From positions 18,232 through 82,231 of the forward strand of contig MERI01000103.1 of NCBI GenBank assembly GCA_001772005.1: a stretch of 64,000 nt of DNA. The letters are read 5' to 3'. The notes below the pieces were generated by a model, which was not told the origin of the DNA, did not search any database, and saw only the letters and a program-made list of their open reading frames with translations. This DNA comes from Betaproteobacteria bacterium RIFCSPLOWO2_12_FULL_62_58 (GTDB taxonomy: Bacteria; Pseudomonadota; Gammaproteobacteria; Burkholderiales; SG8-41). The position numbers were made by a program, and so were the translations under genes. Below, piece after piece: positions 15,616 to 52,621 of this stretch; position 1 is the stretch's first letter, and the number at the start of each line of letters is the position of its first letter.

Positions 15616-15656
15616 CTCGCTTTTGCTCCTCTCTCCTATCCCCTCTCTCCTCTCTC
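15553..15656. repeat. Inverted heptamer array (4x CGAGAGG / 4x CTCCTCT-like) at the thyA-folA junction
   Basis: Units read at 15553-15580 and 15626-15656. Confidence 0.8.
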
Positions 15657-16485: not shown

Positions 16486-16593
16486 AGAAAAGGGATTGCA
16501 TGACTGCAATTTTAATCGAATTCGCTTTGGCGAGGTTGGCTGCGGCAGTTGGTTATAATCCCATCTCTTGTGCATTTCTTCATCGGGATTTTC

Positions 16594-18066
16594 ATGATTG
16601 CCAAGCTCGAACAAAGTTCCGCGTTGCTGACCGACGGGGACGCGAAGCGCGTGTCCCATTTGCTGCTGGTGCTGCCGAAAGCCAAGACTCTTGACGCCCT
16701 GCCAGCAGTGCCGTTTCGGGATGCGCTGGATGCCGGGCTCTTGCGTCGCCGCAAGCAATTCAGCGAACTCGCCAAAGGGCCGCTCGCAGCCGATTTGCCG
16801 CACGGCGCGCTCGCGGCCTGGGTGATGCTCGACCCCGCCCAATCGGCATTCGAGCAGCAAACGGCGGTGCGCAAGGGACTGCAGCTGCTGTTAGCCGAAA
16901 AACCGGAGGAAATCGCAATCGGCGTTTTCGGCAACAGCGGGCAGCGCCGCCACGCCGCTGAACTTGCGGTATACGCGGCATGGATAAACGGCGCGCGGTT
17001 ACCCCAGCGCAAGAAGAAGTCGGACGAAAAAGTTCTGCAGCGGGTCCGGCTGCATGGCCATCGTGAGAGAGACGCGTTTGCGACGTTGCGAGCGCAAGCC
17101 GCGGGCAACACGCTATGCCGGGAGCTGACGGTATTGCCGCCCAACGAACTGACGCCCGGCGCCTATCGTGAGCGGGTGAAAAAGCTCGCAAAGAAATATG
17201 GCTGGGAGCGCGAGGAGTACGACCTGAGGAAACTACGCAAGATGGGGGCCGGCGCGTTTGTTGCGGTGGCGCAGGGCAGCGCCGAGGACGATGCCGCGAT
17301 TGTGCACTTGCGCTATCGGCACAAGAAGGCAAAGAAAACCGTGGCGCTGGTCGGCAAGGGCATCTGTTTCGATACCGGTGGCCATAATTTGAAGACCGCA
17401 CGCTACATGCATGGCATGCACGAGGACATGAACGGATCGGCTGTTGCGCTGGGCATACTGCTTGCCGCGAGCGAGGCACGCCTGCCGGTCAATCTCGATT
17501 GCTGGATGGCGCTGGCGCAAAATCACCTGAGCCCGAAGGCCTACAAGCAGAACGAGGTGGTGACCGCGTTGAACGGCACCACCATCGAGATCGTCCACAC
17601 CGACGCCGAAGGGCGCATGGTGTTATCCGATACCTTGACCCTTGCCGCGCGCGCCAAGCCCGACCTCATTGTCGATTTTGCGACGCTCACCGGCAGCATG
17701 CACGTCGCGCTCGGCGATCGCCACAGCGGCATCTTCGCCACCGGCGGCGATCTGGAAAAAAAGGCGGTCGCCGCCGGTATCGCCTCAGGCGAACGGGTGT
17801 GCGCTTTTCCGTTGGCCGAGGACTACGACACGGCGCTCGAGAGCAACATTGCCGATGTCAAGCAGTGCACCATGGAAGGCGAGGCGGATCACATACTCGC
17901 CGCGCGCTTCCTGAAGCGCTTCACCGACGACCGGCCGTGGATCCACATGGATCTATCCGGCAGCAGCTGCAAAGGGGGCCTGGGCGCGGTCGCGACCGAC
18001 GTCACTGGCTTCGGCGTGGCGTGGGGCGTCGAGCTCCTGAAGATGGCGCTCGGCCGGGCGCGTTGA
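16594..18066 (+). CDS. M17 leucyl aminopeptidase family protein
   Basis: [35 protein letters not shown]; ATG 16594 after TATAAT at 16554. Confidence 0.9.
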
Positions 18067-18160
18067 GCACGCCGCAACGTCCGGCATACATAATCTGTAG
18101 GGGCTCAGACGTGATCTGGCACACCGTGTCCGATCTTTGCATCGGTTCTGCGATTTTCCG

Positions 18161-18360
18161 AACGTCTCAGAACGGCCAACTTCGGACGGTCAAGGTCACC
18201 TCCGGCAATGACTGCTCCTCGGCCAGTGCCGCCGTTAACTCCACGGAACGCCGAAGTCCGCTATGGATTCCGAACCGGACGCAGGCGTAAAAGAACTGCG
18301 CGGGAAGGACCGCTGTGGGCTGGGATGCCGTATGCGTGCTGCCGGCACAAAACGGCCGTA
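18161..18360 (+). repeat. Degenerate ~30-bp semi-palindromic motif repeated with 46-bp period (left island flank)
   Basis: Copies at 18161, 18207, 18253, weaker at 18305 and 18331: AAYGWCYGC..GGCC..CGGAC-like. Confidence 0.55.
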
Positions 18361-18611
18361 AAGGCACTTGAAGAATTCGCGTAAAGCAGACGTTTGACTA
18401 GAAGCGCTGGGCCGTGCCGGTTCTAAAGAGATGTACCACGGTCTCCAGTATCCCGCAAAGTACATCGCGAGCGAGTATTGCGACCTAACATGATGCTGCG
18501 TTTGCCACAGTGCGCCCACGTTGAACTCGATATGTTTCTCCGATCACCATGACCGCGTCAGTGGTTCAGTTCATCGGTGACACGTCGTCATAGAGGAACC
18601 GGCGTCTATAT

Positions 18612-20045
18612 TCATAGGATCGACTCGGGGTGCCACCTCCCCTGCGCTTTCAGCGCGTCGATATAGCCGCATTGCGTCACTGCCTCCAGGACTTCCTCCT
18701 TCGTCGAGTGCCGGATCAAAGGTTCATCAGTCTGCGCGAGAGCCATCATGAGCTCGGCTAACACGACGGCATACTGTTTGACGAGGTGCCTATCGATCTT
18801 ATCCATCGTGTCACAAATCGTGTGATCCCTCAAAGCTGCACCACGGCCTGTCGTGCCCACGGCGGATGCCCGCTTCCGTCCGCCGATTTGCACAGTCGGG
18901 ATGCCCTGCATGGCGAACGGATGATTGTCAGAGGTGCTGCACCAGGCCGGATTGCGCCCATCCGTGAATCCCACGGCAGCATCAATCTTCCATGCCTTGA
19001 CGAGTTTCGATAGCGGAGCGCAGAGTCCTGAAGGATTATTCACAGAGACGAATGGTTCCGGGTATCGTCCGAGTCCGTCGCCATTGATCATGACGTCGAT
19101 ATTCTTGATGTCGCTTTCATGGTGGGCAACATAATTGGTTGACCCGACGGCCCAGCATTCTTCATTTCCAAAGGCTACAAATTGCATCGTTCGCAGGAAC
19201 TTGCCTTTGAAGTTGGCCAGTGTCCGTGCAACATCGAGCATCACCATTGCGCCCAGAAGGTCGTCGCTCGCCGCTTCTTGTCCGATATCGTGGCCATCGA
19301 AATGAGCACCGACCAGGATCTTGCGTTCCGGGTATTTCGTGCCTCTGATATCGCCAACGACGTTCCACCCGACAGCATTGGGCACAACCTCGTTGCGCAT
19401 ATCGATGCTTACGGTTACAGGTCCCTTTTGCAGTTGGCGCTCAATGAACGCACCGGTTTCAAAAGACACGGCGACCACAGGGATGTCGCCGCTTTTCCGA
19501 TAACCGGTGGCGATTGTCCCCGCTTCAATAAGTCCCCCCGGCGTCTCGTTCCTGATGATGAGGCCGACCGCGCCAAAATCGCGCGCCCAACCGTGCTTCC
19601 CCGTTCTGTGACCGATAAAATAACTCTGCCCGGGATACCAACCCGTGGTTACCATGGCGATCTTGCCTTTCACCTGCCCGGCCTTGGCCTCAAAATCCTG
19701 CTTCACACCCTTGCCGAGGTCGATGACCTGCGCTTGGATGCCTCCAGCCGGCGTTGAGGCGGAATGCGCATGGGCAAAGGCCCAAATTTCCCGTTGGACA
19801 GGCGATAGCATTTTCACCGTGCATGGGCCGCGTTTCCACCCGTGGTAGCGATACGACTCCTCATGGGGGTTCTCGAGACCGGAAGCTTTAAACAGCTCCA
19901 GGATATAGTCCTTCGCCTGCCTCTCGCTCTCCGTACCCATGAACCTGTTGCCAAAGTGATCGACCACGTACTCCGTGTGCTCATAAGCTTTGCTGTTGAA
20001 CCAGAGATCACCTACAACCATTTTCCGAACATCAGTGAAGTCCAT
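18612..20045 (-). CDS. M28 family metallopeptidase with PA domain
   Basis: VGAHFD, ASDD, FGNEE, MINGD, SDNHPF, HT..DT. Confidence 0.85.
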   Translation of the reverse strand: MDFTDVRKMVVGDLWFNSKAYEHTEYVVDHFGNRFMGTESERQAKDYILELFKASGLENPHEESYRYHGWKRGPCTVKMLSPVQREIWAFAHAHSASTPAGGIQAQVIDLGKGVKQDFEAKAGQVKGKIAMVTTGWYPGQSYFIGHRTGKHGWARDFGAVGLIIRNETPGGLIEAGTIATGYRKSGDIPVVAVSFETGAFIERQLQKGPVTVSIDMRNEVVPNAVGWNVVGDIRGTKYPERKILVGAHFDGHDIGQEAASDDLLGAMVMLDVARTLANFKGKFLRTMQFVAFGNEECWAVGSTNYVAHHESDIKNIDVMINGDGLGRYPEPFVSVNNPSGLCAPLSKLVKAWKIDAAVGFTDGRNPAWCSTSDNHPFAMQGIPTVQIGGRKRASAVGTTGRGAALRDHTICDTMDKIDRHLVKQYAVVLAELMMALAQTDEPLIRHSTKEEVLEAVTQCGYIDALKAQGRWHPESIL

Positions 20046-20337
20046 ATCTCTATTCCTCCGTGGCGATCGTTTTATCGCTCGATCCTCTTACAAAAACCGG
20101 TTTCGTATCGTTCGTCGAATGTCCCCGGTCGCATAGATTTCTCTCGCGGCGCTACATCGCGATGCACCGCACGCTTCCATCTGCATAATTAGAAACGTTG
20201 TCGCGGCCAGAAAGGTCCGCAGCGCCGTGCATGTTGTTTGTTTTAGCACTACCGGCCTGCTACGGTGCGCCATTCCTTAAGAAGCGGACCATAGCGTTGC
20301 TGTTCCTTCTTGATGTTCATGCGCTCTCTCCATAACT

Positions 20338-22218
20338 TTACGCTGGCAGGAGCGGGAGGATCAAATGGCTCGGGTGCTCCGCGTCGTGAAAGACAGTGTT
20401 TCGCGCCGTGACGGTGTGCGTGTGATAGCCGACGGGCTCCCCAGTGTTCGGATTCGGGTCGAACGTCGGGAAGTTGCTGCTCGAGATGTCGAGGCGAATC
20501 CGGTGGCCGCGTTCGAAGCGATTCGCGGTGGCCCAGAGGTCGATCGTCACCTCGTATACCTCTCCCGGCGTCATCGGCTCGGCCCGCTCGAGTGAATTGC
20601 GGTAGCGCATGCGCCGAATGCTGTCGATCAGGATCATCGCGTAGCCGCGGGGATAGTCCGGATTCGGCGGGTAGACGTCGATGAGCTTTGCGGTGAAGTC
20701 GGTGTCGACCGCGGTCGAGGAGACGTAGAGCTTCACGCTCAGCGGTCCGACGACCTCCACCGCCTGGGCCAGCGGCGGCGTCTGGAAGCTCAGCACGTCC
20801 GGCCGCGACTCCAGCGGCAGATGGTCGATGCAGCCGAGAATATCCGGACGACAGACCTGATCCTGGGGACCAGTGCTGAACGGATAGGTGTAGTTACCGC
20901 CGATTTGCGGACAGGGGTCGTTCGGGGCATAGCTGTAAGCCGTCGGTGCAACGCCAAGCGGTGATGGCTCCGGCCGAAGCGTGCCATCACCGTGAAGGTA
21001 CAGCCGCCGCTCGACCGCACCGGGTACCGGCCAATCGTCGACGGTGATCCAGCGACCACCGTGCTGCATACGGCCGTCGGGATTCTTGCGGCCGCTTCCG
21101 CCCCCCATGATGAAGACTCTAACTCGTGGCTCCTCGTTCAGGATCTCAACGGGCATTTCCTTCAGTACGCGATCGAAGAACGCCAGGCGGAGGTGGTTCC
21201 AGTCGACGTACGCATCGGGGCCGAAGTCGACGTCGCCCTGCCACGTCTTGCGCGCGCGAACCGGCCCGTGGCAGGAGGGCCCGAGCACGAAGTAGGTCGG
21301 TGAGCGGTGGAGGCGCGAGAGGTTCTGGTAGTTGACCATCGTGCCCCGGAGGAGAAAATCGTAAAACCCGCCGTAGAAGAACATCGGGATGTCGGCAAAC
21401 CGGTCGTAGTAACCCTCGTAGTAGTAACCGTTCTGCTTCCAGTAATCGTCGTGATCCTGATGGTCGACCCACTCGCGGTACCAGGTCTGAACGTTCGGCA
21501 GCCGCTCGAAGATCGAGAAGTGCTTGCTGAGCGGGCGTTTGAACCACTCGTAGACGTGCTCCTCGGCCTCGGCTATCCATGCTGCCAGAACCGGATCGGC
21601 CAGCGTCTTCTGATCCATTCTTGCATGATGCAGACTGTAGAAGAGGTTGTGAGCGAGGCGGAAGGCCCCGCCGCAGGCCTCGGTATCTTGATGGTAGTCG
21701 GCCGTGCCGAATGCAGGGAACATCGCAGTCAAGTTCGGCGCTCCCTCGCGCGCGAGCGCCATCTGGGTAGCGCAGTCGTACGAGTAGCCGCTGGTTCCGA
21801 CTTTGCCATTAGACCAGGGTTGCCGGCCGATCCATTCGAGGAGGTCGTAGCCGTCGCGACCTTCATTGAGGTACATCCGGAACTCGCCTTCAGATCGACC
21901 GTGGCCGCGGGAGTCCTGAAACACGAAGACGTAACCGCGCCGCGCGAAGAATTCAGGATCGTTCGCCGCCAAGGCTCGTGGCACCTTGTCGTACGGCGTT
22001 CGGTCGACGATTACCGGAAAGCTCCCCGCTACCGGCTTGCCCTCCTTGGCCGGGAAGTAGAGGTCGGTCGCAAGTCGGACTCCGTCCCGCATCGGCACCA
22101 TAACGTCGCGGACCAAAGCATATTCACGATACTCTGCAGGCCGATCGTAGCCGAGGAGCCGGAGTGCTGCGTCGGAGCTCTTGGCGATGGTGGTCACGTC
22201 GGCGATTGTTTGCACCAT
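20338..22218 (-). CDS. CocE/NonD family serine hydrolase (S15-like)
   Basis: VPMRDGVRLATDLY, RTPYDK, DSRGHGRSEG, GYSY, GHRIRLDISSSNFP. Confidence 0.92.
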   Translation of the reverse strand: MVQTIADVTTIAKSSDAALRLLGYDRPAEYREYALVRDVMVPMRDGVRLATDLYFPAKEGKPVAGSFPVIVDRTPYDKVPRALAANDPEFFARRGYVFVFQDSRGHGRSEGEFRMYLNEGRDGYDLLEWIGRQPWSNGKVGTSGYSYDCATQMALAREGAPNLTAMFPAFGTADYHQDTEACGGAFRLAHNLFYSLHHARMDQKTLADPVLAAWIAEAEEHVYEWFKRPLSKHFSIFERLPNVQTWYREWVDHQDHDDYWKQNGYYYEGYYDRFADIPMFFYGGFYDFLLRGTMVNYQNLSRLHRSPTYFVLGPSCHGPVRARKTWQGDVDFGPDAYVDWNHLRLAFFDRVLKEMPVEILNEEPRVRVFIMGGGSGRKNPDGRMQHGGRWITVDDWPVPGAVERRLYLHGDGTLRPEPSPLGVAPTAYSYAPNDPCPQIGGNYTYPFSTGPQDQVCRPDILGCIDHLPLESRPDVLSFQTPPLAQAVEVVGPLSVKLYVSSTAVDTDFTAKLIDVYPPNPDYPRGYAMILIDSIRRMRYRNSLERAEPMTPGEVYEVTIDLWATANRFERGHRIRLDISSSNFPTFDPNPNTGEPVGYHTHTVTARNTVFHDAEHPSHLILPLLPA

Positions 22219-22252
22219 GAAGTCTCCCTATCCCCCAAACAGAGCGGTGGAG

Positions 22253-23452
22253 CTAGATTTCAACGAATTTCATTGGATATTTCTGCAGCGCCTCGGCGCC
22301 AGTTTCAGTAACGAGAACGAGGGAGCCGATCTGAAGCCCCCGCCGTTTATCCGCTGAGAGGACGTGGGGCTGAACGACCATACACATGCCGGGCTTGAAT
22401 ACGATTGGCTCTTGGGGCCGCTTGATCAGCGCGATTTCGAAAAGATCCAGCCGGGGCGGCTCGATGCTGAGTCCCCAACCATGCACGAGGGCATCAAAGG
22501 TCCAGAATCCTTTCTCCTTGATCGGAGCAGCGGCTCGGCGCACATCCTCGTCCGTCTTGCCAGGGCCCATCGCGCCGAGCACGCGCTGATAGGTCTCTTT
22601 GGCGACCTCAAAGATCTCTTGATATGCCTGTGTCGGCTTGCTGCTGACAACGAGCGGGCGGTGGATCTGACCGGCATAGCCCGAGTAGCTCGAGCTGAGC
22701 TCGGTCAGAACCACGTCGCCCTTCTGGAGCTTACGATGAGAAGGCTCCTGGCGGGGGAAAATGATCTGCGGATCGTCCATCGAGGTGGCGCCGATGAAGC
22801 TCACTCGCTGGTCGCCGTTCAGGCCATAGCAGGTCTTGGCGATGATGCCAGCGAGCTGGAGCTCTGTCATGCCCTCCTTAGCTTCCTGCTCGAGAGCGAC
22901 GACGGTCGCATCGGTGAGCTCAGCACCCTTCCGGAGCCACTCGATCTCTTCGTTGCTCTTGATCCTCCGTATCTGCTGGAGAATCTCGGTCGCATCTTCC
23001 AACGTTGCATTGGGCAGCGCCGATCTGAGGCCCTCGACGTGCTCGTGGGGCAGCGTACTCTTTTGGATCCCACGCAGCCCGACTAATCCGAGACGGGCCC
23101 TGTCCAGCTTCAGCCTCTTCAGCTCGACGGCGACGCGCTCTGGCGGGTTCCAGGTTACCCAGTCGACATTCTTGACCACCGCCATCGTCTTCGCGTGGGG
23201 TAGATAGAGCTCGTTGCTCATGATCAGGATCGGTTCCTGGCCGAGAGGGACCAGGACGTAGCTGAAGAGCGGATCGCGATAGCCGGTAAGATAGAAAATG
23301 TTGGCCTGATTTCCGCTGTGGCTTCCCGAGTCACCGTAGACCACCAGGCCGTCCAGGTGCCGCTTTTCCATCTCCGCCCACACAGCCTGGTGGCGTCGCT
23401 GGTATTCCTCGGAGCTAAAGCTGGGGAAAATCTGCGTCTGCTGCTGAATCAT
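22253..23452 (-). CDS. M24 (Xaa-Pro peptidase/creatinase-like) family protein with altered metal ligands
   Basis: FSSEEYQRR, NIFYLTGY, RRIKSNEEI, HGWGL; ATG 23452 after GGAGG. Confidence 0.82.
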   Translation of the reverse strand: MIQQQTQIFPSFSSEEYQRRHQAVWAEMEKRHLDGLVVYGDSGSHSGNQANIFYLTGYRDPLFSYVLVPLGQEPILIMSNELYLPHAKTMAVVKNVDWVTWNPPERVAVELKRLKLDRARLGLVGLRGIQKSTLPHEHVEGLRSALPNATLEDATEILQQIRRIKSNEEIEWLRKGAELTDATVVALEQEAKEGMTELQLAGIIAKTCYGLNGDQRVSFIGATSMDDPQIIFPRQEPSHRKLQKGDVVLTELSSSYSGYAGQIHRPLVVSSKPTQAYQEIFEVAKETYQRVLGAMGPGKTDEDVRRAAAPIKEKGFWTFDALVHGWGLSIEPPRLDLFEIALIKRPQEPIVFKPGMCMVVQPHVLSADKRRGLQIGSLVLVTETGAEALQKYPMKFVEI

Positions 23453-23484
23453 CGGGCCTCCTTCCAATCCTGAGGATTAATTGT

Positions 23485-24624
23485 TTATTGCTTAGCCGGC
23501 TTCACGGCAGCACCAGCCTCGGGCGGGCGGGCCAACAATCCGCCTTTCGGCCGACAAGTAGAGATTCCACGAGTCGGAGTTATCGAGCTTTGGTACAGGT
23601 GACAGGCCACATGGTGCTCAGGGCTGACTTCCCGCCATGGGGGCGCCACCCGCAAGCAAATATCCATCACACAAGGGCATCGCGTCCGGAAGCGGCAACC
23701 GGATGGAATGTCGATCGGAGTCGGCACCTCGCCCGGTAGCTCGACTCGCTTGCGAGCAGCTGTCGGGTCGGCAATCGGCACTGCCGCCATCAGGCTCTGT
23801 GTGTATGGGTGGGCCGGGTGATCGATCACCTCATCTGTCTCTCCGTGTTCGACGAAGACGCCGAGGTACATGATCGCGACCCGATCGCAGACGTAGCGAA
23901 CGGTCGAGATATCGTGCGAGACGTAGAGCACGCCGAGGCCAAGATCCTTTGAGAGCGTCTCGAGCAGGTCGAGTATCCCTGCTCGAATCGATACGTCGAG
24001 CATCGAGATCGGCTCGTCGGCGACGACAAAGTCAGGCTTGAGCACGAGCGTGCGGGCGATGACTGCGCGCTGCCGCTGACCACCGGATAATTCGTGGGGG
24101 TAACGGTGAAGGAAGTGGCGAGGCTGCAGATTCACCCGCTCGAGCGACTCGACGACGCGGACGGCCCGCTCGGCGCGATCGCCGATACCGTGAATCTTGA
24201 GCGGCTCCTCGACCGCCTCGCCCACGGTCAGCCTGGGATTGAGGGAGCCATAGGGGTCCTGGAAAATGATCTGGGCCCGACGCCGGAATCGCCGGAGGCC
24301 ATCGCCGTGGATATGAGTGACTTCCTCGCCGCTCAGGAAGATGCTGCCGGCACTCGGCTCATAAAGCCGGACGAGCGTCATTCCCAGCGTCGACTTTCCA
24401 CTGCCGCTCTCGCCGACCAGACCAAAGATACTTCGGCTCGATACGCTCACGTCGACGCCATCAACCGCCTTGACGGTTCGGGGCGGCCCGCGCCGAACGA
24501 GCGCCGCGATCACACCGGTGTCGATCGGGAAGTGCTTCTTCAGTCCTTTGGCCTCGATCACCGGGGCGGGTGTAGCTGCCTGATCCTGGACCAGCCTATC
24601 GCCCGGCTCGCGTCGAGCGGTCAT
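23485..24624 (-). CDS. Peptide ABC transporter ATP-binding subunit (OppF/DppF-like)
   Basis: GESGSGKST, LSGGQRQR, VADEP, HPYT, GCRFRTRC. Confidence 0.92.
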   Translation of the reverse strand: MTARREPGDRLVQDQAATPAPVIEAKGLKKHFPIDTGVIAALVRRGPPRTVKAVDGVDVSVSSRSIFGLVGESGSGKSTLGMTLVRLYEPSAGSIFLSGEEVTHIHGDGLRRFRRRAQIIFQDPYGSLNPRLTVGEAVEEPLKIHGIGDRAERAVRVVESLERVNLQPRHFLHRYPHELSGGQRQRAVIARTLVLKPDFVVADEPISMLDVSIRAGILDLLETLSKDLGLGVLYVSHDISTVRYVCDRVAIMYLGVFVEHGETDEVIDHPAHPYTQSLMAAVPIADPTAARKRVELPGEVPTPIDIPSGCRFRTRCPCVMDICLRVAPPWREVSPEHHVACHLYQSSITPTRGISTCRPKGGLLARPPEAGAAVKPAKQ

Positions 24625-24661
24625 CGATCGTTCTCCAAGCGCAAGCGTGTGCTCCAGCAGG

Positions 24662-25759
24662 TTAGCCGAGGCCGATTCGCACAGCAACCTCGTCCCAGGT
24701 CGATTTCTCCTTCGCCCGTTCCCGCAAACTGGCGGCCTGATCGGTGTAGTGGCACGCGGCCGAGTGATCGGTCCCAACGTGGCGCAGTGATGGCTTGAGG
24801 TCCCGGCAACGGTCGCTCGCGAAAGGACATCGCTCGGCGAAGCAACAGCCGCGCGGCGGGTCGATCAAGCTTGGTGGACTGCCCGGAATGGCGATCAGCT
24901 TGTTGATCGCGCCCTTGATGTTCGGGAATGCGTTCTTGAGCCCCATCGTGTAAGGATGGCATGGCTCCTGAAGGACACCGATCGTCGGCCCGTATTCGAC
25001 GATCTTGCCCGCGTACATGACGGCCGTGTCATTGCACGTCTCGGCGATGACGGAGATATCGTGCGTGACGAGGATCATCGAAGCGCCCACCGCCTCATGA
25101 ATGCGGCGAATCCGGCCGAGGATTTGGTCTTGCGTGATTACGTCGAGCGCAGTCGTCGGCTCGTCGGCGATGATCAAGCCCGGCTGCAGTACCAGGGCGA
25201 GCGCGATGATCGCGCGCTGGCGCATCCCTCCACTAAATTGGTGCGGATAGTTCCTGAGCCGGTCTGGAGCCAGCTCAACCAAATCGAACATCTCGACGGC
25301 TCGCTGCCAGGCATCGTCATAGCTAACGTCCCCGTGCGCCCGGATCGCCTCGACGATCTGGTCGCCAACCCGATAGACCGGATCGAGGCTATTCATCGCG
25401 CTCTGCGTGATCAGCGACATTCGCGTCCAGCGAATCTGGCGAAGCTCGTTCGACTTCATCGCCAGCACGTTGCGGCCGTCGAGTCGGACCTCGCCGTCAA
25501 CGAACGCATCCTCGGGAAGCAGTCGGAAGATCGCTTTAACCAGCGTCGTCTTGCCGCAGCCCGACTCGCCGACCATGCCGAGATAATCGCCCGGCCGCAC
25601 CTCGAAGCTGACGTCGTCCACGGCCCTGACGTAGCCGCTCCGGGTCGCGTAGTAGGCGCGAAGGCGGTCGACGGAGAGCTCCCCCGGCCTCGTTTGTTGC
25701 CGAAGGTGCTCGATCAACCGGGACTTACGAGTCGTTGGCCTCGCCGCCTGCTGGGTCAT
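24662..25759 (-). CDS. Peptide ABC transporter ATP-binding subunit (OppD/DppD-like)
   Basis: GESGCGKTT, FSGGMRQR, IADEPTTALD, HPYT. Confidence 0.92.
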   Translation of the reverse strand: MTQQAARPTTRKSRLIEHLRQQTRPGELSVDRLRAYYATRSGYVRAVDDVSFEVRPGDYLGMVGESGCGKTTLVKAIFRLLPEDAFVDGEVRLDGRNVLAMKSNELRQIRWTRMSLITQSAMNSLDPVYRVGDQIVEAIRAHGDVSYDDAWQRAVEMFDLVELAPDRLRNYPHQFSGGMRQRAIIALALVLQPGLIIADEPTTALDVITQDQILGRIRRIHEAVGASMILVTHDISVIAETCNDTAVMYAGKIVEYGPTIGVLQEPCHPYTMGLKNAFPNIKGAINKLIAIPGSPPSLIDPPRGCCFAERCPFASDRCRDLKPSLRHVGTDHSAACHYTDQAASLRERAKEKSTWDEVAVRIGLG

Positions 25760-26754
25760 GCCGCCCTCTGTCGGAGTCGAGGATTCGTTTTCTCTTCGAA
25801 TGCTCGACCGATGAAGTAGATCGATGAGATCAGCAGGATCAGGCCAAGCGATGGCGGCAGGACCCACCACCAGGCCGAGCGGATTGAGGCGGTCTGGAAG
25901 GCAAGGTTCAGCATCTGCCCCCAGCTTGCCATGCTGGGGTCACCCAGCCCGATAAAACTCAAGCTCGCCTCGGTGAGTACCGCAAAAGCGATCGACATCG
26001 TCATCCACAAAAAGGCGACCGGAAGCACGTTCGGCAAGATATGGTAAGTCATGATCCGCCAGTGGCTTGCGCCGAGTGCTCTGGCTGCAGCGATGAATGG
26101 CCGCTCCTTCTGGGTCAGCACGGCTGATCTCACGATTCGGGCGCCATTCCGCCAATACAGGAGGACGATGACGAACAGCACGTTCTCCAGACTTGGGCCG
26201 AGCACAGCGACCATGATGATTGCAAACGGAAGAGTCGGAATGCTGAGCGCGATATCGACGATTCGCATGATCGCGTCGTCGAGGTAGCCCCCGAAGTAGC
26301 CTGAGACCAGGCCGAGAACGGTGCTGATCAGCCCGACGGCAACAGCTGCGCTGAGCCCAACCAGGAACGCGATCCGGATTCCCAGGATGAACTGCGAGAG
26401 GACCGAGTGGGCAAAGTAATCGGTGCCGAATGGGTGGGCTGCACTTGGCTCGGCGAGACGAAGCATGGTTCCGTCAGGTGCCTTCAAGGCCTGAAACGGG
26501 GGAAGCGGCACGATCAGTGGGCCGAGAATGCCAACAACTGCCAGCGTGGCGATGATCGCCATCCCGACTACCGCCATTCGATCCTTGACGAGCAGCCCGA
26601 ATGTCTCGATGAGCGGAGCAAACACCGAGCGCGATCGCCCGGCCGCCCAGATCGCCATCGCCTCCTGAACCCTGGACGGGTCAAACGCGGCAGCCCGATC
26701 CTCTGAATAAACCGCGCTCGCACGTCTGATTTTCGATTTCTTCAGCAGAGTCAT
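25756..26754 (-). CDS. Peptide ABC transporter permease (OppC/DppC-like)
   Basis: HPFGTD, AARALGAS..RI..HILPNV, EASLSFIGLG. Confidence 0.92.
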   Translation of the reverse strand: MTLLKKSKIRRASAVYSEDRAAAFDPSRVQEAMAIWAAGRSRSVFAPLIETFGLLVKDRMAVVGMAIIATLAVVGILGPLIVPLPPFQALKAPDGTMLRLAEPSAAHPFGTDYFAHSVLSQFILGIRIAFLVGLSAAVAVGLISTVLGLVSGYFGGYLDDAIMRIVDIALSIPTLPFAIIMVAVLGPSLENVLFVIVLLYWRNGARIVRSAVLTQKERPFIAAARALGASHWRIMTYHILPNVLPVAFLWMTMSIAFAVLTEASLSFIGLGDPSMASWGQMLNLAFQTASIRSAWWWVLPPSLGLILLISSIYFIGRAFEEKTNPRLRQRAA

Positions 26755-26773
26755 TTCAGCTTCCTCACTGCCG

Positions 26774-27745
26774 TTACTTATAGACGACCCGAGGGTCGAG
26801 GTAGCTGTAGACAAGATCGGCAAGAAGATTCGATGCGACGATCATCACAGCGAGCAGGAAGAAGCCGGCCTGGGCAATCGGCATGTCTTGCCTCGTGACC
26901 GAGAATACCAGCTCCCGGCCTACCCCGGGCCAGCTGAAGACCACCTCGACGAGCACGATCCCCGCGACCGTCTCGGCTAAGCTGGGAAATAGCCACGTAA
27001 TGACCGGCAGCAGCGAGTTCCGACCGGCGTGCCACATGACCCGGAATTCGCTCACACCCTTGGCTCGGACCATTTCGAGATAGTCTTCTCCTCGGGCTTC
27101 AAGTACGCCAGTGCGCATGAGCAGCAGGTTTTCAGGAATGAACGTCAGGGCGACGACCGCGACCGGGAGAATCAAGTGTTGGAGAAAGTCGCCGTTCAGG
27201 TATGTCGCTGCGAAGCCCGAAGGATTCGCTCCAGGGGTTCTCATGCCGAAACCCGGCAGTAGGTCGAAAAAGCCGCTGAAGACCATGAGCGCGAGGATCC
27301 CGGTTACGAAAGGTGGCGCTCCACGGATGACGGTCGCCAACAGAATACCCAGCCCGTCGATCGCCCCACCCCGGCGGGACCAGCCGACGAACATCCCGAG
27401 GACTGAGCCGAACGTGGCGCCAAGCAGCAAGCCAGGGATCGCGATCCAGAGCGTGTTGAGAACCTTGGGTGCGAGGATTTCCCAGACGGGCTTGCTGTAG
27501 AAGAAGGAAAGCCCGAAGTCGCCTTGGAAAAGGTTCGTGAGGTAGCGAACATACTGAACGTAGAGTGGCCCCGTGAGTCCCCACTGCTCGAGCAGCCGCT
27601 GGCGGGTCTCCTCCGGCATGCCGCGCTCGACGAGCATCGCCGTCGGATCGGACGGGATGATCCTGAAAATCACGAACATGAGAGTGACCATCACGAAGAC
27701 GACGATGATCGACTGGATGATTCGGCGGGCTAAGTAGACTCGCAT
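26774..27745 (-). CDS. Peptide ABC transporter permease (OppB/DppB-like)
   Basis: GDFGLSF, HLILP, RAKG, EVVFSWPGVG, DLVYSYLDPR. Confidence 0.92.
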   Translation of the reverse strand: MRVYLARRIIQSIIVVFVMVTLMFVIFRIIPSDPTAMLVERGMPEETRQRLLEQWGLTGPLYVQYVRYLTNLFQGDFGLSFFYSKPVWEILAPKVLNTLWIAIPGLLLGATFGSVLGMFVGWSRRGGAIDGLGILLATVIRGAPPFVTGILALMVFSGFFDLLPGFGMRTPGANPSGFAATYLNGDFLQHLILPVAVVALTFIPENLLLMRTGVLEARGEDYLEMVRAKGVSEFRVMWHAGRNSLLPVITWLFPSLAETVAGIVLVEVVFSWPGVGRELVFSVTRQDMPIAQAGFFLLAVMIVASNLLADLVYSYLDPRVVYK

Positions 27746-27887
27746 CCGGGCAAGCCCCCTCCAGTCAACGTTAACCCTGCGCGATGTTCCGGGCGAAATT
27801 GCACAGCTTGTTGAACATCGTGTCCCGATTGAGCCGGCAAACTACCGGTTCTGCATCCGTGCAAGCGTGGGCAGAGCACACCCGCGC

Positions 27888-29639
27888 CTACCTCATGCTG
27901 GCATCTGATGGTATGTTCGGACCGTTCGGCGGGAAATGCAACCGCCCGTCCTTGCCCCAGCCATAACCGGCGTTTTTCAGGACCTGCCTCGCCTGGTTGA
28001 GGTTATAGTCCCACTTCTTCAGGGTCTTGTCGTACCAGAAATCCATCACGATCGGGATCGGACCCTCGCCGGGCACGGTCCCGTGCCCGAGCAGCGCCTC
28101 TTCGTTGATTCTGCTCTTGTTCGTCGCCAGCCGGAGGGCCTGCCGTACCGCCGGGTCCTGGAACAGCTCCTTCTTGTGATTCACGACGACACATTGTGTG
28201 CCATGGACCGGAATGTTCACAAACGTCAGCTGTTTGTTCTGCTTGGCGAGGTCGCTCGCCTTGGCACCGGTGATCAGGTCGGTGGTGAAGTCGATCTGTC
28301 CCTGCTGCATGGCGGCGACCATGGCGTCACTGGAGGAGAAGACGACCTTCCGGATCCCCTCAATCTTGGCTGGCTGGAAAAATCCGTCGAACCGCTTGAG
28401 GAAGTGTTCCTGATCTTTGGTCCAGTGGTCGAAGACGAACGGACCGCTGCCAATGACCTTGTCTGGCCGTGGATCCCACTGCATCGGAGTCTTGACGCTA
28501 ACCCGTTCGGGCACCTGGGACCAGATATGCTCGGGCAGCACCGGCACAAACGTCAGGGTCTTGCGGAAAAACGCCGCGTCGGGCTCCTTGAGCATGATGC
28601 GAACGGTCAGCTTGTCGACCGCTTTGGCGCCCGCGACGTTCTGCATCGCAACCTGATAGGTCGGTGGCTTCCACTTGAGGAGGTAATCGAACGTGAACGC
28701 GGCGTCCTTCGCGGTCACTTCCCGCCCGTCGTGGAACTTCGCGCCGTCGCGAAGTTTGAGTTCGATCGTCGTCGGGTCGATTACTTTCCACCCGGTTGCG
28801 GCCCAGTCGCCGAGCTTGCTGCCGTCATCCCGGAGGAATGTCTGGTAGACCATACGAAGCCAGCCGAAGGAGGCCGTCTCGGCCAAGACATTCCAGGTGC
28901 TTACGTCCTCGGGAGCACCGGTATCCAGTATCTTATCGTCGGTCTTGGGGGTGATGCTCAGCCAGGGTTCCTTTCTTCCATCGTTAACCTGCACAGGGGT
29001 TGGGTTCGGGAAGTTCTCGAACTTCCGGTTGTTGTAGAGCATGAAATCGGCACTATGCGTCACCGGCCACTGCGGCAGCCGCTCGTTGTGGTAAGCCGAC
29101 ATCTTGAAGACGAGAGCCCGGCGCTTGGACTCGTCGAGCTCGACTCGCTGCGCCTTGAACATCTTGTCCCACTCGGGGTCGCACCAGTGGCCGGAGTTGC
29201 GCCTCGAATTACACGTGTTCAAATCGCCTAACCAGTGGTTTGGATCGAGGCGCTCCGGATCGCCGCCCCAGCTTACCAGGGCCAGGTCGTTGATCTGCCC
29301 GCCGACCGTGATCTGACTGACAAAGGTGTTGAAGTTCATCGGCTTGAGCTGAATGTCGAAGCCGATCTTCTTGAAGTCCTCCATGAGAATGCGGGCGATA
29401 GCCACGAAAAATGGGCTGTAGTCGGCCGAGTAGTGTGCAAACTCAAGGGTTGGTACGATGGTGCCAAGCTGTCCTGCTGGGGGGGCTGCTGTTGCGCTCG
29501 CGGCGGGCTGGCTGCGGGCCGCCAGCAGCGCGCTCGCAGCCGAGAGCGAAAGTCCTAACCGAATGGCTCGAGCCAAAAACTGGCGGCGGCCGATGCGTCC
29601 CGCGGTGAACTGCTCTACCAAACTGTCCAGGGTTGCCAT
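27888..29639 (-). CDS. Family 5 ABC substrate-binding protein with Tat signal; domain order appears permuted
   Basis: GRRQFL Tat motif; LRDGAKFHDG.EVTAKD, IGSGPF, DPAVRQAL. The normally C-terminal DESKRRALV segment occurs in the N-terminal third. Confidence 0.88.
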   Translation of the reverse strand: MATLDSLVEQFTAGRIGRRQFLARAIRLGLSLSAASALLAARSQPAASATAAPPAGQLGTIVPTLEFAHYSADYSPFFVAIARILMEDFKKIGFDIQLKPMNFNTFVSQITVGGQINDLALVSWGGDPERLDPNHWLGDLNTCNSRRNSGHWCDPEWDKMFKAQRVELDESKRRALVFKMSAYHNERLPQWPVTHSADFMLYNNRKFENFPNPTPVQVNDGRKEPWLSITPKTDDKILDTGAPEDVSTWNVLAETASFGWLRMVYQTFLRDDGSKLGDWAATGWKVIDPTTIELKLRDGAKFHDGREVTAKDAAFTFDYLLKWKPPTYQVAMQNVAGAKAVDKLTVRIMLKEPDAAFFRKTLTFVPVLPEHIWSQVPERVSVKTPMQWDPRPDKVIGSGPFVFDHWTKDQEHFLKRFDGFFQPAKIEGIRKVVFSSSDAMVAAMQQGQIDFTTDLITGAKASDLAKQNKQLTFVNIPVHGTQCVVVNHKKELFQDPAVRQALRLATNKSRINEEALLGHGTVPGEGPIPIVMDFWYDKTLKKWDYNLNQARQVLKNAGYGWGKDGRLHFPPNGPNIPSDASMR

Positions 29640-29929
29640 CTCGTTCTTCCTCCTTCGTGTGGTTAAAATAAACGACGAGACGATAGAAAAAGGAAATCAA
29701 TCCGGCGCCGATTTCGCTGCGCCGAGCCCATACGCCAGGAGCAAGTGCAAAAGCACTCGCAGAGTGCGCATAGGCCTTATGTTTATGCTTGCTTTCTCCT
29801 CCCCCGGAGAAAAACCATCATCGGAGCGAGTATCGGACAGGTTTTACCGCGCAATCTATTCCAACCGCGGGAACAAGGCAAGCTCTTGCCCGCCGTCCTG
29901 CTCAAGGGCGAGCACCCACCAGAAAGTAC

Positions 29930-30205
29930 TTGTGATGGAGTCCGCCCAGGACCGATTTGACTCTCACATCCCTCGAATACGGATCCGGTCCAGAGACTTT
30001 GTCCTGCTGGTAACGCAATCAGTTTTGGAGGATCAGGCACGCCAGGTCCCAACGACATGTGCGGTGCATTACCCACGCGGTCAAGATCAATCGAAGGTGG
30101 GCCGCGGACATCGGTATCGACCAGTCAAGACACTCCCGCCTGATCGTGCCAACTACACGCTTACAAATCGCGTTGGCATTCGGCGCCCGCAGCGGAGTCT
30201 CATTC
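29930..30205 (-). pseudogene. Integrase-core (rve) transposase remnant
   Basis: TPLRAPNANAICKRVVGTIRRECLD..SAAHLRLIL resembles the C-terminal rve segment; fragment only. Confidence 0.7.
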
Positions 30206-30218
30206 GCCCGACATCGCC

Positions 30219-30341
30219 AACGACTGCAATCGGCCACATTGCCGACGTAACAGTTGGGCGGTCCCAATGACCGCACTGGCCGAATAGCGGACGGTCGGCT
30301 GCATCGGCCTGTATGACCGCAGAGGGTCGATCTGAGTCGTT
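30219..30341 (+). repeat. Same ~30-bp semi-palindromic motif, three copies with 47/46-bp period (right island flank)
   Basis: Copies at 30219, 30266, 30312. Confidence 0.62.
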
Positions 30342-30423
30342 CGTGACGATCTACGATTTATTCCGTCGCTGCAAGATTGTGCATCGTCTCCGACTGACAC
30401 TGTCCGTCAGATCGAGTCTGGGC

Positions 30424-30694
30424 TAGAGCCTGTCTCAATAATATCCACGTGTGCGACGGGGCAATGTGGGATGCAGTTCTAGGAGCAGAGCCCGCGGCAA
30501 TATCGCGAATATTGCAAGGACTCGCGACAACGAAATGCGCCCAGATTGCCCCGTCCCTTCGGGTTGCGGCCAAAACAGGCGTCTGCGTTGTCCCGTCGCT
30601 TGCCAATATTCGCGATATTGGCTGCGCTCCGCTCCTAGCAGCCATCCCGTTTGGGCCGCAACGCATCGCGCGGATATTATTGAGACAGGCTCTA
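30424..30694. mobile_element. MITE-like element, 271 bp, perfect 23-bp terminal inverted repeats including flanking TA
   Basis: TAGAGCCTGTCTCAATAATATCC (30424-30446) and GGATATTATTGAGACAGGCTCTA (30672-30694); no credible ORF. Confidence 0.85.
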
Positions 30695-30718: not shown

Positions 30719-30758
30719 AAAAACCGTGGCCGGGCCGCTAGCCCCGGCCACGGTTTTT
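30719..30758. terminator. Bidirectional intrinsic terminator
   Basis: AAAAACCGTGGCCGGG-loop-CCCGGCCACGGTTTTT. Confidence 0.85.
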
Positions 30759-31028
30759 GTCCCAAACGTAGCGCACAAGCCGCTGCCAGCGACTTTGCGG
30801 CTGCGTGAGCTTGTTGTGCGCCTTGCCCCCTGCCTGATCGCGCAAGTGGCTGCGCTTCACCAACTCGTGCAGCTCGCGCATCGTCATGCCGCCGGGGCCT
30901 GTGCCGAGCGTTCGATCTTCGACGGGCTCAGACTGAACGCGCTGCTCGGACTTTTTCCTGGACGTACGACTTGTGTCTTCTTCAGTCGAAGGGCCCTTCA
31001 GCTTGTCGGGATCGGGTTTGTCAGCCAT
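30738..31028 (-). CDS. Hypothetical small basic protein
   Basis: 96-aa ORF divergent from aroC, ending in the terminator; no recognisable motif. Confidence 0.4.
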   Translation of the reverse strand: MADKPDPDKLKGPSTEEDTSRTSRKKSEQRVQSEPVEDRTLGTGPGGMTMRELHELVKRSHLRDQAGGKAHNKLTQPQSRWQRLVRYVWDKNRGRG

Positions 31029-31095: not shown

Positions 31096-32259
31096 ATGTC
31101 CGGCAGCACGTTAGGCAAGCTTTTTTGTGTCACGTCATTTGGCGAGAGCCACGGGCCGGCGATCGGCTGCGTGGTCGACGGCTGCCCGCCGGGCATGCAC
31201 CTCAGCGAAACGGACATTCAGGCTGATCTCGACCGCCGCAAGCCGGGCACCTCGCGCCATGTCACGCAACGGCGTGAAGAAGATATCGTGGAAATTCTTT
31301 CGGGCGTCTTCGAAGGCAAAACCACCGGCACACCGATCGCGCTCTTGATCCGCAATGTCGATGCGCGAAGCCGGGACTACTCCAAGATCAAGGACATGTT
31401 CCGTCCGGGGCATGCCGACTACACCTACTGGCAGAAGTATGGCATTCGCGACTACCGCGGCGGCGGCCGGCAGTCGGCGCGCGAGACCGCCGTGCGCGTC
31501 GCCGCTGGCGCGATTGCGAAAAAGTGGCTGCGTGAAAAATACGGCGTCGTGATCCGCGGCTACCTCGCGCAATTGGGGCCGATCGCGATCCCATTCAAAT
31601 CATGGGAGGGGGTCAACACCAATCCATTTTTCGTTGCTGATGCCAGTGTCGTGCCGCAGCTCGAGGAGTTCATGGACAAGCTCAGGAAGTCGGGCGACTC
31701 GGTCGGCGCGAAGATCACGACCATCGCTTCCGGCGTGCCGGTCGGCTGGGGCGAGCCGGTGTACGACAAGCTCGACGCCGATCTCGCCTACAACATGATG
31801 AACATCAATGCGGTGAAAGGCGTCGAGATCGGCGCCGGTTTTGCCGCGGTCACGCAAAAGGGCACCGAGCATTCCGACGAGATGGCGCCGCAGGGATTCT
31901 TGTCGAACAACGCCGGCGGCATCCTCGGCGGCATCTCGACGGGGCAGGACATCGTGGTCAACGTGGCCGTCAAACCCACATCGAGCATCCGGCTCGCGCG
32001 GCGCACCGTCGACAAGCAGGGCAATCCGACCGTGATCGAAACCCACGGCCGCCACGATCCGTGCGTGGGCATTCGCGCGACTCCGATCTGCGAAGCGATG
32101 ATGGCGTTGACGTTGATGGATCACGCACTGCGGCACCGCGCGCAAAACGCAGACGTCGCGTGCGAAACGCCGAAGATCCCCGCGGCCGCGCCGCAGTCGG
32201 TGATCGACCAGCTACGCAACGCTGCCGCGACTGAGAACCCCGATCCCGACGAGGCTTGA
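31096..32259 (+). CDS. aroC: Chorismate synthase
   Basis: [28 protein letters not shown]. Confidence 0.97.
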
Positions 32260-32264
32260 TTGCC

Positions 32265-32858
32265 ATGAACGAAACCGCAACCGTTTACCAACTGAGAATT
32301 GCGCTCGCCTATATCGAACCCAGCGTCTGGCGGCGGCTGGAGGTCCCGAGTACCATGACTTTCGGTGATCTTCACGGCGCGATCCAGGCGGCGATGGGCT
32401 GGGAGGACTGCCACCTGTGGGCGTTTTACGTTGGGAAGACAGAAGTCAGTCCGGATCCGGAACAGTTTGATTTCCCCGGCGAGCCGCGCGCCCAAGCGGC
32501 GGACTGGACCGCGCTCGATGACATGCTCGCCGGCCGCCGCATCAAGTTCCGCTACATCTACGACATGGGTGATGACTGGCTGCACGAGATCAAGGTCGAA
32601 AAGATTCTCGCCCCCGAGCCGGGTGTGCAGTACCCGCGCTGCACCGGTGGCGAGCGCGCCTGCCCGCCGGAGGATTGCGGTGGGTTCCCTGGCTACTACA
32701 ATGTTCTGGAAGCGCTGGCGGACCCGAAACATCCTGAGTACGAAGAGATGCTCGATTGGATCGGCGGCGAGTGGGACCCGGAAGCCTTCGACATCAAGGC
32801 CGTGAACGCGAGGCTCCAGCCCCGTAAACGCAGGCCTGCACGACGCCCGAAAAAGTAG
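32265..32858 (+). CDS. Plasmid pRiA4b ORF-3 family protein
   Basis: YQLRIAL..VWRRLEVP..LHGAIQ.AMGW...HL, YIYDMGDDWLHEI, ACPPEDCGG. Confidence 0.88.
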   Translation: MNETATVYQLRIALAYIEPSVWRRLEVPSTMTFGDLHGAIQAAMGWEDCHLWAFYVGKTEVSPDPEQFDFPGEPRAQAADWTALDDMLAGRRIKFRYIYDMGDDWLHEIKVEKILAPEPGVQYPRCTGGERACPPEDCGGFPGYYNVLEALADPKHPEYEEMLDWIGGEWDPEAFDIKAVNARLQPRKRRPARRPKK

Positions 32859-32979
32859 TCATCCGGTCGCCGTAAGGCGCCGAAAGGTGCATGTCCGGCC
32901 GCGAATCTGAACCGTTGCTGGGGTGGGCAGGGCGTACGCAGCATTGCTCCCGCCGTGCACGCTGCATTAAGATGCCCAG

Positions 32980-36338: not shown

Positions 36339-36340
36339 AT

Positions 36341-37150: not shown

Positions 37151-37161
37151 CAGGGTATGTG

Positions 37162-41614: not shown

Positions 41615-41694
41615 GCACGCATCAGTGAAACGCGCCCTGTTCCGGGTGGTCTGAATATGCAACAATCCAAAATTTCCATGAGGTTACGTAAGAG

Positions 41695-45036: not shown

Positions 45037-45037
45037 G

Positions 45038-52619: not shown

Positions 52620-52621
<2 letters not shown>

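Follow-up and report, generated by a model that had tools for sequence, protein, structure and literature searches.

Inverted three-subsite arms around a peptidase and transporter operon: candidate ends of a 12-kb gene module proposed to be moved in trans

Several described systems resemble, in part, the locus analysed here. The res-type sites of Tn3-family resolvases, like the sites that bound invertible segments, hold three dimer-type imperfect palindromes within about 120-140 bp. Integron attC sites, whose lengths lie above 30-44 nt, are hairpin-prone and tied to captured genes. In composite transposons bounded by MITEs (PMC13367494, PMC3934969), a pair of short gene-less elements brackets cargo, and the enzyme acts in trans. 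REP, BIME and REPIN elements with their RAYT partners (PMC3337134, PMC3116915) are imperfect palindromes outside genes that in some cases form clusters whose members alternate in orientation. The window analysed here is a 64,000-nucleotide stretch of a contig (C103) from an uncultured betaproteobacterial genome (G000). It holds a 12.2-kb module (18,159-30,343) in a variable interval between pepA and aroC, with the following features:

16,549-18,066, plus strand: pepA (M17 leucyl aminopeptidase; Pfam Peptidase_M17, E = 3.7e-99), the conserved left flank
18,159-18,300, minus strand relative to the family model: left arm L (subsites L1-L3), distal tip at 18,159
18,173-18,236, plus strand: conserved distal part of the left arm ('type A'), with copies in other genomes at 85-92% identity
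18,219-18,229, minus strand: 11-base core of L, at the centre of the middle subsite and common with R; present once per strand in the window
18,612-29,639, minus strand: cargo operon, from Pfam matches
29,690-29,893, no strand given: dispersed repeat of about 200 nt, separate from the arms, inside the module and directly upstream of the binding-protein gene
30,202-30,343, plus strand: right arm R (subsites R1-R3), distal tip at 30,343
30,273-30,283, plus strand: 11-base core of the right arm, counterpart of the L core
30,738-31,028, minus strand: small conserved ORF of 96 aa, no Pfam family
31,096-32,259, plus strand: aroC (chorismate synthase; Pfam E = 8.3e-137; orthologues in relatives), the conserved right flank

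Each arm consists of three imperfect palindromic subsites with a 46/47-bp period, and inverted copies of one 9-mer (AAYGRCNGC, with its complement) make up the subsites. A sequence-only reading of this DNA had picked out six 30-mers, three per arm, at a 46/47-base spacing, and all six are where it placed them. Their mean pairwise identity is 13.7/30, against 7.8 expected from composition. In R the motif AYGACYGC starts at 30,220, 30,267 and 30,313 (spacing 47 then 46), and the 47/46 spacing returns in a third array of the same genome (contig C142; units at 9,634, 9,681 and 9,727). The assertion that all copies share one orientation was mistaken: both the family profile described below and reverse-complement alignment place L inverted relative to R. 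Aligned without gaps from the outer tips to the core, the reverse complement of L is identical to R at 73 of 142 positions. The inverted alignment scores 21 (null 9.4 +/- 1.6; direct orientation 15), a score that one of 3000 random windows equalled. Sequence comparison thus shows that L and R have the anatomy of inverted arms. In 13 copies the arms pair at about 75%, compared with 20-45% in most slid controls (61-71% at +3). Within the window by itself the statistics are weak. Lag-46 self-similarity is 0.45 for R, within the top 2.7% of genome windows, and 0.33 for L, a value equalled or beaten by 86% of them. Tandem-repeat calling returned nothing at L or R, the arms are absent from the output of a repeat finder (seed 10, minimum length 20), and blastn and nhmmer, run on the genome at ordinary thresholds, gave no further copy of either arm. 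Genome-wide palindrome scans with relaxed settings matched mostly at gene starts.

The cargo enclosed by the arms is an operon for proline-peptide uptake and degradation. According to Pfam, it encodes an M28 aminopeptidase, an S15 X-Pro dipeptidyl peptidase and an M24 prolidase, together with two Opp/Dpp ATPases, two permeases and a family-5 solute-binding protein. On the left, pepA has orthologues in 14 relatives (69-82% identity); on the right, conservation with relatives picks up again at about 30,754. The pepA-aroC gap is only about 315-320 bp in two relatives (G003 and G006) and is occupied by other genes in five more. The two island genes tested, those of the binding protein and the M28 peptidase, have no close homologue in 40 relatives, and a sample of 400 genomes from the class likewise lacks one for the M28 gene. 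The 12-kb island that the repeat clusters had been said to bracket is thus real and lineage-specific. The accompanying idea, that the operon was inserted into an array of such sites, is unsupported: the two empty alleles hold no array. A precise empty site for the module was not found among the relatives, since these are too distant in intergenic DNA. Three other metagenome contigs carry the cargo operon without detectable arms. The module has no mobility gene, and no recombinase is encoded in or beside the island; therefore any enzyme must act in trans, as had been supposed.

The arms belong to a dispersed family, and it was comparison with other sequences that showed the repeat pattern to be real. 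Copies in other genera resemble L1-L2 at 85-92% identity along some 64 nt; this type A segment has 10 distinct copies, all intergenic (G019, two; G008; G015, two; two palsa MAGs, four), and R2-R3 matches G020 at two places. Such conservation of the distal 64 nt of L across genera is what would be expected of an enzyme-recognised end. The linkers between the units, described earlier as unique, are so within the window but are conserved among family members elsewhere. When an nhmmer profile was built from 22 copies, with L and R left out, its best match in the window was R (E = 2.3e-5; 0.0021 across the genome), and the next two were L on the plus (E = 0.0075) and on the minus strand (E = 0.085). 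Across the genome, L alone is not significant (E = 0.69). On relatives of the distal part of L, the family profile gives minus-strand matches at E = 3.7e-13, 2.2e-7 and 3.3e-6. For L and R, nhmmer profiles outperform covariance model R1, which with filters off placed neither arm high in the window (R, 8.2 bits on the minus strand, E = 1.2; L absent from its list). The covariance model, applied to 101 genomes of the taxonomic family, finds members in 28, and a single genome has as many as 13; at E <= 1 there are 5 copies in G000 and 10-19 in each of four relatives. Family arms measure 110-280 bp.

Neighbouring copies lie mostly as inverted (-,+) pairs. Counting neighbours up to 10 kb apart on the same contig gives 20 pairs, of which 13 are oriented (-,+), 3 (+,-) and 4 directly (binomial P = 1.8e-4). 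Among pairs with both partners at E <= 0.01, 9 of 15 are (-,+) (P about 0.004), and the bias is independent of gene direction. We annotated ten pair interiors, nine (-,+) and one (+,-), and found 0.7-7 kb of unrelated genes, among them DnaJ, GAF, SBP_bac_3, TctC with LysR, PIN, a TonB receptor, TspO with SOUL and hydrolases; none of the ten contains an intact transposase. Arms within a pair are 63-85% identical to each other. Comparison across genomes thus shows a family whose copies sit in inverted pairs around unrelated cargo, which supports this part of the earlier reading. No target-site duplication is visible at the outer ends of 11 pairs, whose boundaries are known only approximately. 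Some copies are solo, tandem or beside mobile-element debris; those examined are all intergenic, with varied neighbours, and two species of one genus have kept orthologous arms. For the C142 copy and for a module in another genome (G488:C10), searches for an empty site met flanks that lie on separate contigs or are not conserved.

A metagenome contig, L100, bears on what the arms do. Its aroC is 92% and its far flank 94.6% identical to the window, whereas the cargo reaches 99.4% over 3058 nt, and the step from 92% to 99.4% falls at the arm. The arm beside the M28 gene is a hybrid, running from R-distal sequence through the shared 11-base core into L-proximal sequence. A predicted hybrid fits it at 174 of 177 positions, compared with 148 for parental L and 97 for parental R, and its BLAST pieces overlap exactly at the core (18,219-18,229). 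L100 is, on the evidence of this one contig, an inverted isomer of the module, and the junction shows that the two arms have recombined, in nature, at their shared core. The earlier conclusion that the repeats are recombination sites stands to this extent; the integron-like system that it invoked finds no support. Among the joints listed for Logan contigs of public runs, none is a strand-changing L-R joint; contigs of two runs (X9 and X13) end at 30,283, the edge of the right-arm core, which is only a weak hint.

We looked for an enzyme. No autonomous copy, in which arms would enclose a transposase or recombinase gene, was found, and no arm examined adjoins a recombinase gene. The linkage to a recombinase that had been proposed as a check is not seen: the Y1, Y2, tyrosine-trio and serine recombinase genes that were examined have no family match nearby. 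In G000, none of five Y1_Tnp loci has a significant family match within 1.5 kb, and intact Y2/Y1 loci in four genomes have none either. Serine recombinase genes occur singly in G000, G503, G020 and G015 and twice in G488. A partner of Tn7, Mu or Tn402 type was not found, TniB giving only weak AAA matches; the search with Mu-transpos_C was silent in control genomes too and is therefore not proof of absence. A tyrosine-recombinase trio on another contig of the genome (C68) has its own, unrelated 33-nt inverted repeats. Scored with the integron integrase model TIGR02249 (curated cut-off 265 bits), G000 has two intact integrases (C211, 492 bits; C168, 479 bits) and a broken one with two stop codons (C116, 443 bits). 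All three lie away from the island, no PF00589 match occurs on the island's own contig, and no link between these integrases and the arms was found.

Our best explanation is that the module is transposon-like cargo with complex inverted ends, moved in trans by an enzyme encoded elsewhere, a reading that we hold to be evenly poised between right and wrong. On this view L and R, each of about 140 bp, would be the diverged inverted repeats at the two ends of the 12.2-kb module, and their subsites may be the binding sites of a multimeric transposase or recombinase. The enzyme, encoded elsewhere, would move or once have moved the whole module, in a way that can be likened to composite transposons bounded by non-autonomous elements. 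We infer, on this basis, that the 9-mers are bound by the enzyme, that it acts in trans and that the module arrived by transposition. As in MITE-bounded composite transposons, gene-less elements bracket cargo, here at L and R, at the ten annotated pairs and at a further arm pair in the same genome (G000:C30). In contrast to them, the arms here, 110-280 bp long, have an internal period and three palindromic subsites, no matching autonomous element or parent transposase was found, and no target duplication was seen at 11 pairs. The MAGs concerned are of uncultured Burkholderiales type, and what the pairs enclose in them are ordinary genes of metabolism and regulation.

One rival makes the arms multi-subsite sites of a site-specific recombinase, res- or hix-like, whose normal reaction would be inversion; they would only flip the segment between them, with no transposition. 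Three imperfect palindromes, at 47/46 bp in R and C142, within the roughly 140 bp of an arm do reproduce the res layout. The L100 crossover maps to the 11-base centre of the middle palindrome in arms otherwise 51-58% identical, which offers little homology for RecA-dependent exchange, and the five genomes named above do encode serine recombinases. We nevertheless think this unlikely: no recombinase gene stands beside any arm examined, it is hard to see what use there would be in flipping whole operons whose functions are unrelated, and microhomology-mediated template switching would just as readily put the crossover at the longest stretch of identity. Nor does flipping alone explain lineage-specific cargo that is near-identical across diverged flanks. 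Unlike res sites, of which a transposon has one, the arms flank cargo in pairs, and their crossover lies in the middle subsite. We think it quite unlikely that the arms are passive repeats, extragenic palindromes like REP, BIME or NIME, with no role in moving the operon and located at island edges because island borders are intergenic. The palindromic subunits, the uniformly intergenic position with varied neighbours, the solo, tandem and debris-associated copies and the retention of orthologous arms in two species would all suit such repeats. The (-,+) bias (13 of 20) independent of gene direction would not, nor would the identity step at the arm in L100. The family has 1-19 copies per genome (at most 19 at E <= 1), not tens to hundreds, does not flank Y1 transposase genes (none of five within 1.5 kb in G000) and occurs as widely spaced inverted pairs around genes; on copy number and missing Y1_Tnp linkage we rejected identity with REP/RAYT, as the sequence-only reading had done.

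Still less room is left for the view that the units are attC-type sites, though unusual ones, on which the genome's integron integrases act in trans; we rate it as very improbable. Three such integrases do exceed the 265-bit cut-off, and the units are hairpin-prone and often start or end with AAC or GTT. Simple insertion of a circle in the integron manner is excluded because the sites around one cargo are inverted, not direct. The units, at 30-44 nt, lack the RYYYAAC and GTTRRRY boxes and fall short of attC length; read directly they show AAT or AAC and GTT, with flanks outside the attC consensus. A strict attC scan of the genome gave two loci (C58 and C240) and a looser one a single site on C116, none at L, R or C142. 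The canonical attC-like sites on C116 and C240 look different from the arm units, which also break the attC orientation rule. The empty alleles in G003 and G006 carry no such sites, no linkage of the units to intI was found, and the contig encodes no integrase. Chance similarity of GC-rich intergenic DNA would fit the weak within-window statistics and the silence of standard repeat finders, but is already contradicted, and hardly credible, given homologues in other genera at 85-92%, the genome-wide E of 0.0021 for R from a profile built without it, the one in 3000 random windows matching the inverted alignment, and the hybrid arm in L100.

Returning to the reading of the arms as ends of a module moved in trans, a bolder version, which strikes us as rather doubtful, is that they mark a gene-module system not described before. 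The ends, each with three subsites in about 140 bp, would be served in trans by a single-copy recombinase or transposase, the cargo would be arbitrary (0.7-12 kb), and the modules would be moved between lineages and flipped in place. If so, it would be a third packaging for gene exchange, beside integron cassettes and classical transposons. Should the arms be enzyme-recognised ends, a family of uncultured soil and groundwater bacteria would be trading ordinary metabolic operons as discrete modules. Modules without a mobility gene escape searches keyed on transposases or integrases. The defined 9-mer, crossover core and natural isomers make a testable system for finding the enzyme, and the family could serve to measure what share of MAG accessory DNA is packaged as such modules.

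Two further classes were considered and rejected. The arms do not behave as structured RNA: type A copies have no compensatory pairs, covariation is not above that of shuffles, RNAalifold gives none, no Rfam family matches and folding z-scores range from -0.8 to -2.3. As had been said from the outset, they are not a CRISPR array either, the units being on average 46% identical and no tandem array being called. The dispersed repeat at 29,690-29,893 has about 20 partial or full copies in the window's genome, and further copies occur in relatives.

A 12.2-kb cargo module without a transposase is bounded by the two repeat clusters, which form its diverged arms in inverted orientation and are part of a family-wide set of modules of this sort. 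As judged from a single metagenome contig, L100, the two arms have recombined in nature. The module is laid out as follows.

left flank: pepA (M17)
18159-18300: left arm, L (units L1-L3)
between the arms, minus strand: a single operon for an M28 aminopeptidase, S15 X-Pro dipeptidyl peptidase, M24 prolidase, two Opp/Dpp ATPases, two permeases and a family-5 binding protein
30202-30343: right arm, R (units R1-R3)
right flank: a small ORF and aroC

The claim that the clusters bracket a cargo island proved correct. In related genomes G003 and G006, pepA and aroC lie 320 and 315 bp apart; conservation with the relatives ends just past the pepA stop, restarting at ~30754. The binding protein and M28 peptidase have no close homologue among 40 relatives, nor has the latter any in 400 genomes sampled from the class. 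Cargo and flanks do not differ in base composition. Elsewhere the pepA-aroC interval spans 1.4 to 6.6 kb (G011, G004, G010, G001, G008): the 1.4-kb interval of G011 gives no Pfam match, the other four hold an MFS-acyltransferase, and DUF2339 and DUF3999 (G001, G008) or DUF349 (G010) also occur. Empty alleles with contiguous clusters, suggested as a check, did not materialize, the spacer of G003 and G006 being free of arm-like units. Nor are the arms an obligate part of the operon, which occurs without detectable arms on three other contigs at ~76-90% identity to that of the window; on one of these M28 is followed by putA, and a second carries a fragment of an aldo/keto reductase as well as a Y1 gene. 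On metagenome contig L103 a related operon is mosaic (S15 94% but M28 only 76% identical to the window), lacks the M24 prolidase gene and has putA after M28. Immediately upstream of the binding-protein gene, 29690-29893 is a dispersed repeat of ~200 nt with ~20 copies in the genome holding the window (G000) and others in relatives; in G000 a contig often has 2-4 of them, directly oriented and separated by 1.5-7 kb (C1, C216, C190, C180, C245, C162), and one C1 copy adjoins a Y2 transposase fragment.

Seen from the window alone, support for the clusters is thin. All six 30-mers of the sequence-only reading are present exactly as quoted, with a mean pairwise identity of 13.7/30 vs 7.8 expected, and copies of the motif AYGACYGC in R begin at 30220, 30267 and 30313 (spacing 47 and 46). 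Lag-46 self-similarity is 0.33 for L, equalled by 86% of genome windows, and a modest 0.45 for R (top 2.7%). Neither cluster was called in the window by Tandem Repeats Finder or a repeat finder, and blastn and a first nhmmer profile gave no further copies of L or R in the 5.9-Mb genome. The same genome nevertheless holds a third array on contig C142 (units 9634, 9681, 9727), with the 47/46 spacing of R. Both arms share an 11-base core at the centre of the middle unit (18219-18229 and 30273-30283), which occurs 8 times genome-wide, both strands counted.

The clusters are real, as first observed; the shared orientation ascribed to them is not. A profile of 22 family copies, with L and R left out, ranked its matches in the window as follows.

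R, plus strand: rank 1, E 2.3e-5 (genome-wide 0.0021)
L, plus strand: rank 2, E 0.0075 (genome-wide 0.69)
L, minus strand: rank 3, E 0.085 (genome-wide not listed)

Well-conserved relatives of L in other genomes match this profile on the minus strand relative to L as written (E 3.7e-13, 2.2e-7 and 3.3e-6); the conserved distal segment of L (type A, 18173-18236) is therefore a family member's distal portion in reverse orientation. Aligning the two arms directly leads to the same conclusion: from the outer tips inward, 30202-30343 and the reverse complement of 18159-18300 line up with no gap, 73/142 positions being identical (43/71 from tip to core). The score of 21, vs 15 in direct orientation and a null of 9.4 +/- 1.6, was reached by 1/3000 random windows.

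Homologues of the arms are dispersed among relatives. The L1-L2 junction (18173-18236) has copies at 85-92% identity in G019 (two), G008 and G015 (two); with two palsa MAGs labelled Betaproteobacteria, found in a collection scan, there are 10 distinct copies, all intergenic and with unrelated neighbours. R2-R3 matches two sites in G020, and the C142 element retrieved 17 further copies in G015, G020 and G021, whose alignment defines a conserved element of 110-200 nt. According to a covariance model of 13 copies, the family is present in 28/101 genomes of the taxonomic family, with at most 13 copies per genome (tallies that include the unpublished genome G014, which underlies nothing else here). 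In public sequencing run X1, depth over 18173-18230 is ~559 at 18201 vs ~49 for neighbouring cargo; the conserved distal segment seems, from this excess, to be common to many genomes of that community.

Neighbouring family matches on one contig within 10 kb are oriented as follows (20 pairs).

(-,+): 13/20 (P 1.8e-4 for a quarter expected)
(+,-): 3/20, two of them abutting with a 27-nt gap
direct: 4/20, two of them tandem

With both partners at E<=0.01, (-,+) pairs make up 9/15 (P about 0.004); the bias does not track gene direction. The interiors of ten pairs, nine of them (-,+) and one (+,-), were annotated and measure 0.7-7 kb. They contain a DnaJ protein; a GAF protein; two SBP_bac_3 genes; TctC and LysR; an unknown ORF and PIN; DUF2946 and a TonB receptor; PNPOx-like, TspO, DUF2177 and SOUL; hydrolases and EamA; and, in the sole (+,-) pair, a tyrosine recombinase gene. 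One interior of 0.9 kb has no ORF >=110 aa. Identity between paired arms is 63-85%, along 60-130 nt in general and 281 nt in a single case; the usual end point is GGCCGA or just a few bases past it, and no target duplication is visible at the pairs compared. A second likely module of G000, C30 49609-55710, has three unknown ORFs and lies within an island carrying a P4-type integrase. At G498:C138:80-314 and G503:C325:5393-5681, arms abut tip to tip across 27 nt, as if two modules stood back to back.

All arms consist of inverted copies of the 9-mer AAYGRCNGC and its complement, alternating with ~13- and ~17-nt spacers, which accounts for the 46/47 period. Hairpins can be drawn in two registers, on the original 30-mers or on segments centred on the linkers. 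In 13 copies both pair at ~75% of cells, vs mostly 20-45% for slid controls (61-71% at a slide of +3), and neither shows covariation above shuffles. Type A copies contain no compensatory pairs, folding z-scores range from -0.8 to -2.3, and Rfam gave no match. The symmetry is therefore conserved at the level of sequence, a better fit to protein recognition than to structured RNA. That the arms are passive palindromic repeats is one of two main rival explanations, and we regard it as doubtful.

The evidence for recombination comes from L100 (8878 bp), where 3058 nt of the cargo, at its M28-S15 end, are 99.4% identical to the window, aroC being 92% and a further flank 94.6% identical. Here the M28 end faces aroC, and the arm adjoining M28 is composite: the distal half of R, in reverse, leads through the 11-base core into the proximal half of L, and the two BLAST pieces overlap precisely on the core. 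It matches the predicted recombinant at 174/177 positions, vs 148/177 for parental L and 97/177 for parental R. On this one contig, the arm is as expected on the aroC side after an inversion by exchange between both arms; had the module inserted independently the other way round, L would have stayed whole. L100 carries a 2.7-kb replacement immediately beyond the arm, with a GH18-type gene and a 228-aa ORF, so that the last 14 arm bases differ. Identity steps up at the arm, from about 92-97% to 99.4%, which points to diverged lineages having recently exchanged the module. Microhomology-mediated switching could make the same joint, since exchange at the longest identical stretch is expected from both it and a site-specific enzyme. 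A res/hix-like inversion system is the other main rival, and an unlikely one. A transposon-like module served in trans is, in our judgement, the most likely reading, to which we give about an even chance. Of the systems that general literature searches brought up, the closest are structures of composite type with MITEs or TIMEs at their ends (PMC13367494, PMC3934969) and REPINs (PMC3337134, PMC3116915).

The integron-like interpretation placed on the island is highly unlikely. The units had rightly been held not to be attC: they fail the box consensus, are too short and inverted, and differ from the canonical attC-like sites of G000. Three integron-type integrase genes of G000 exceed the TIGR02249 cut-off (C211:13783-14724, C168:58753-59691 and C116:4925-5851, the last broken by two stop codons); none is on the window's contig, and no observation connects them with the arms. 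Directly beside the integrase on C116, and likewise in G021:C48, stands an IS91-type Y2 transposase gene; on C116 a canonical 59-nt attC-like site follows. REP/RAYT, likewise dismissed earlier, is contradicted by low copy number and by 0/5 Y1 genes in G000 flanked by a copy. The anticipated linkage to a recombinase gene was not borne out, no candidate examined showing a tie with the arms. Most Y2 genes of the IS91 type are fragments; at four sites such a fragment is inside an arm or within ~320 nt of one, but no arm lies near the intact Y2 genes examined. Three consecutive tyrosine recombinase genes at G000:C68:8546-11791 (L106:2047-5292) constitute a recombinase-in-trio type element, whose own 33-nt inverted repeats (L106:1923-1955 and 5362-5394) are unrelated to the arms. 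Of five genomes, G488 has two serine recombinase genes and the other four have one each, all on other contigs; Tn7/Mu-type genes were not detected.

Several other features of the window deserve mention. The 272-bp element at 30423-30694 matches its own reverse complement at 73% and recurs many times within the genus and family, G011 alone having at least 9 copies; L100 lacks 30426-30692 with a clean joint. The element resembles a mobile MITE that has a natural empty site. After aroC, 32260-40480 (PRiA4_ORF3 and a 980-aa DNA methylase; GC dips to 48% at 34000-34500) is a second island at the same locus: L100 lacks it and joins aroC to window 40481-41988. Finally, paired tandem-heptamer arrays (4-10 copies each, 20-60 nt apart) occupy intergenic positions 304-431, 15553-15656, 43874-43961, 45033-45127, 52620-52701 and 54393-54542, and several of these pairs look mutually complementary.
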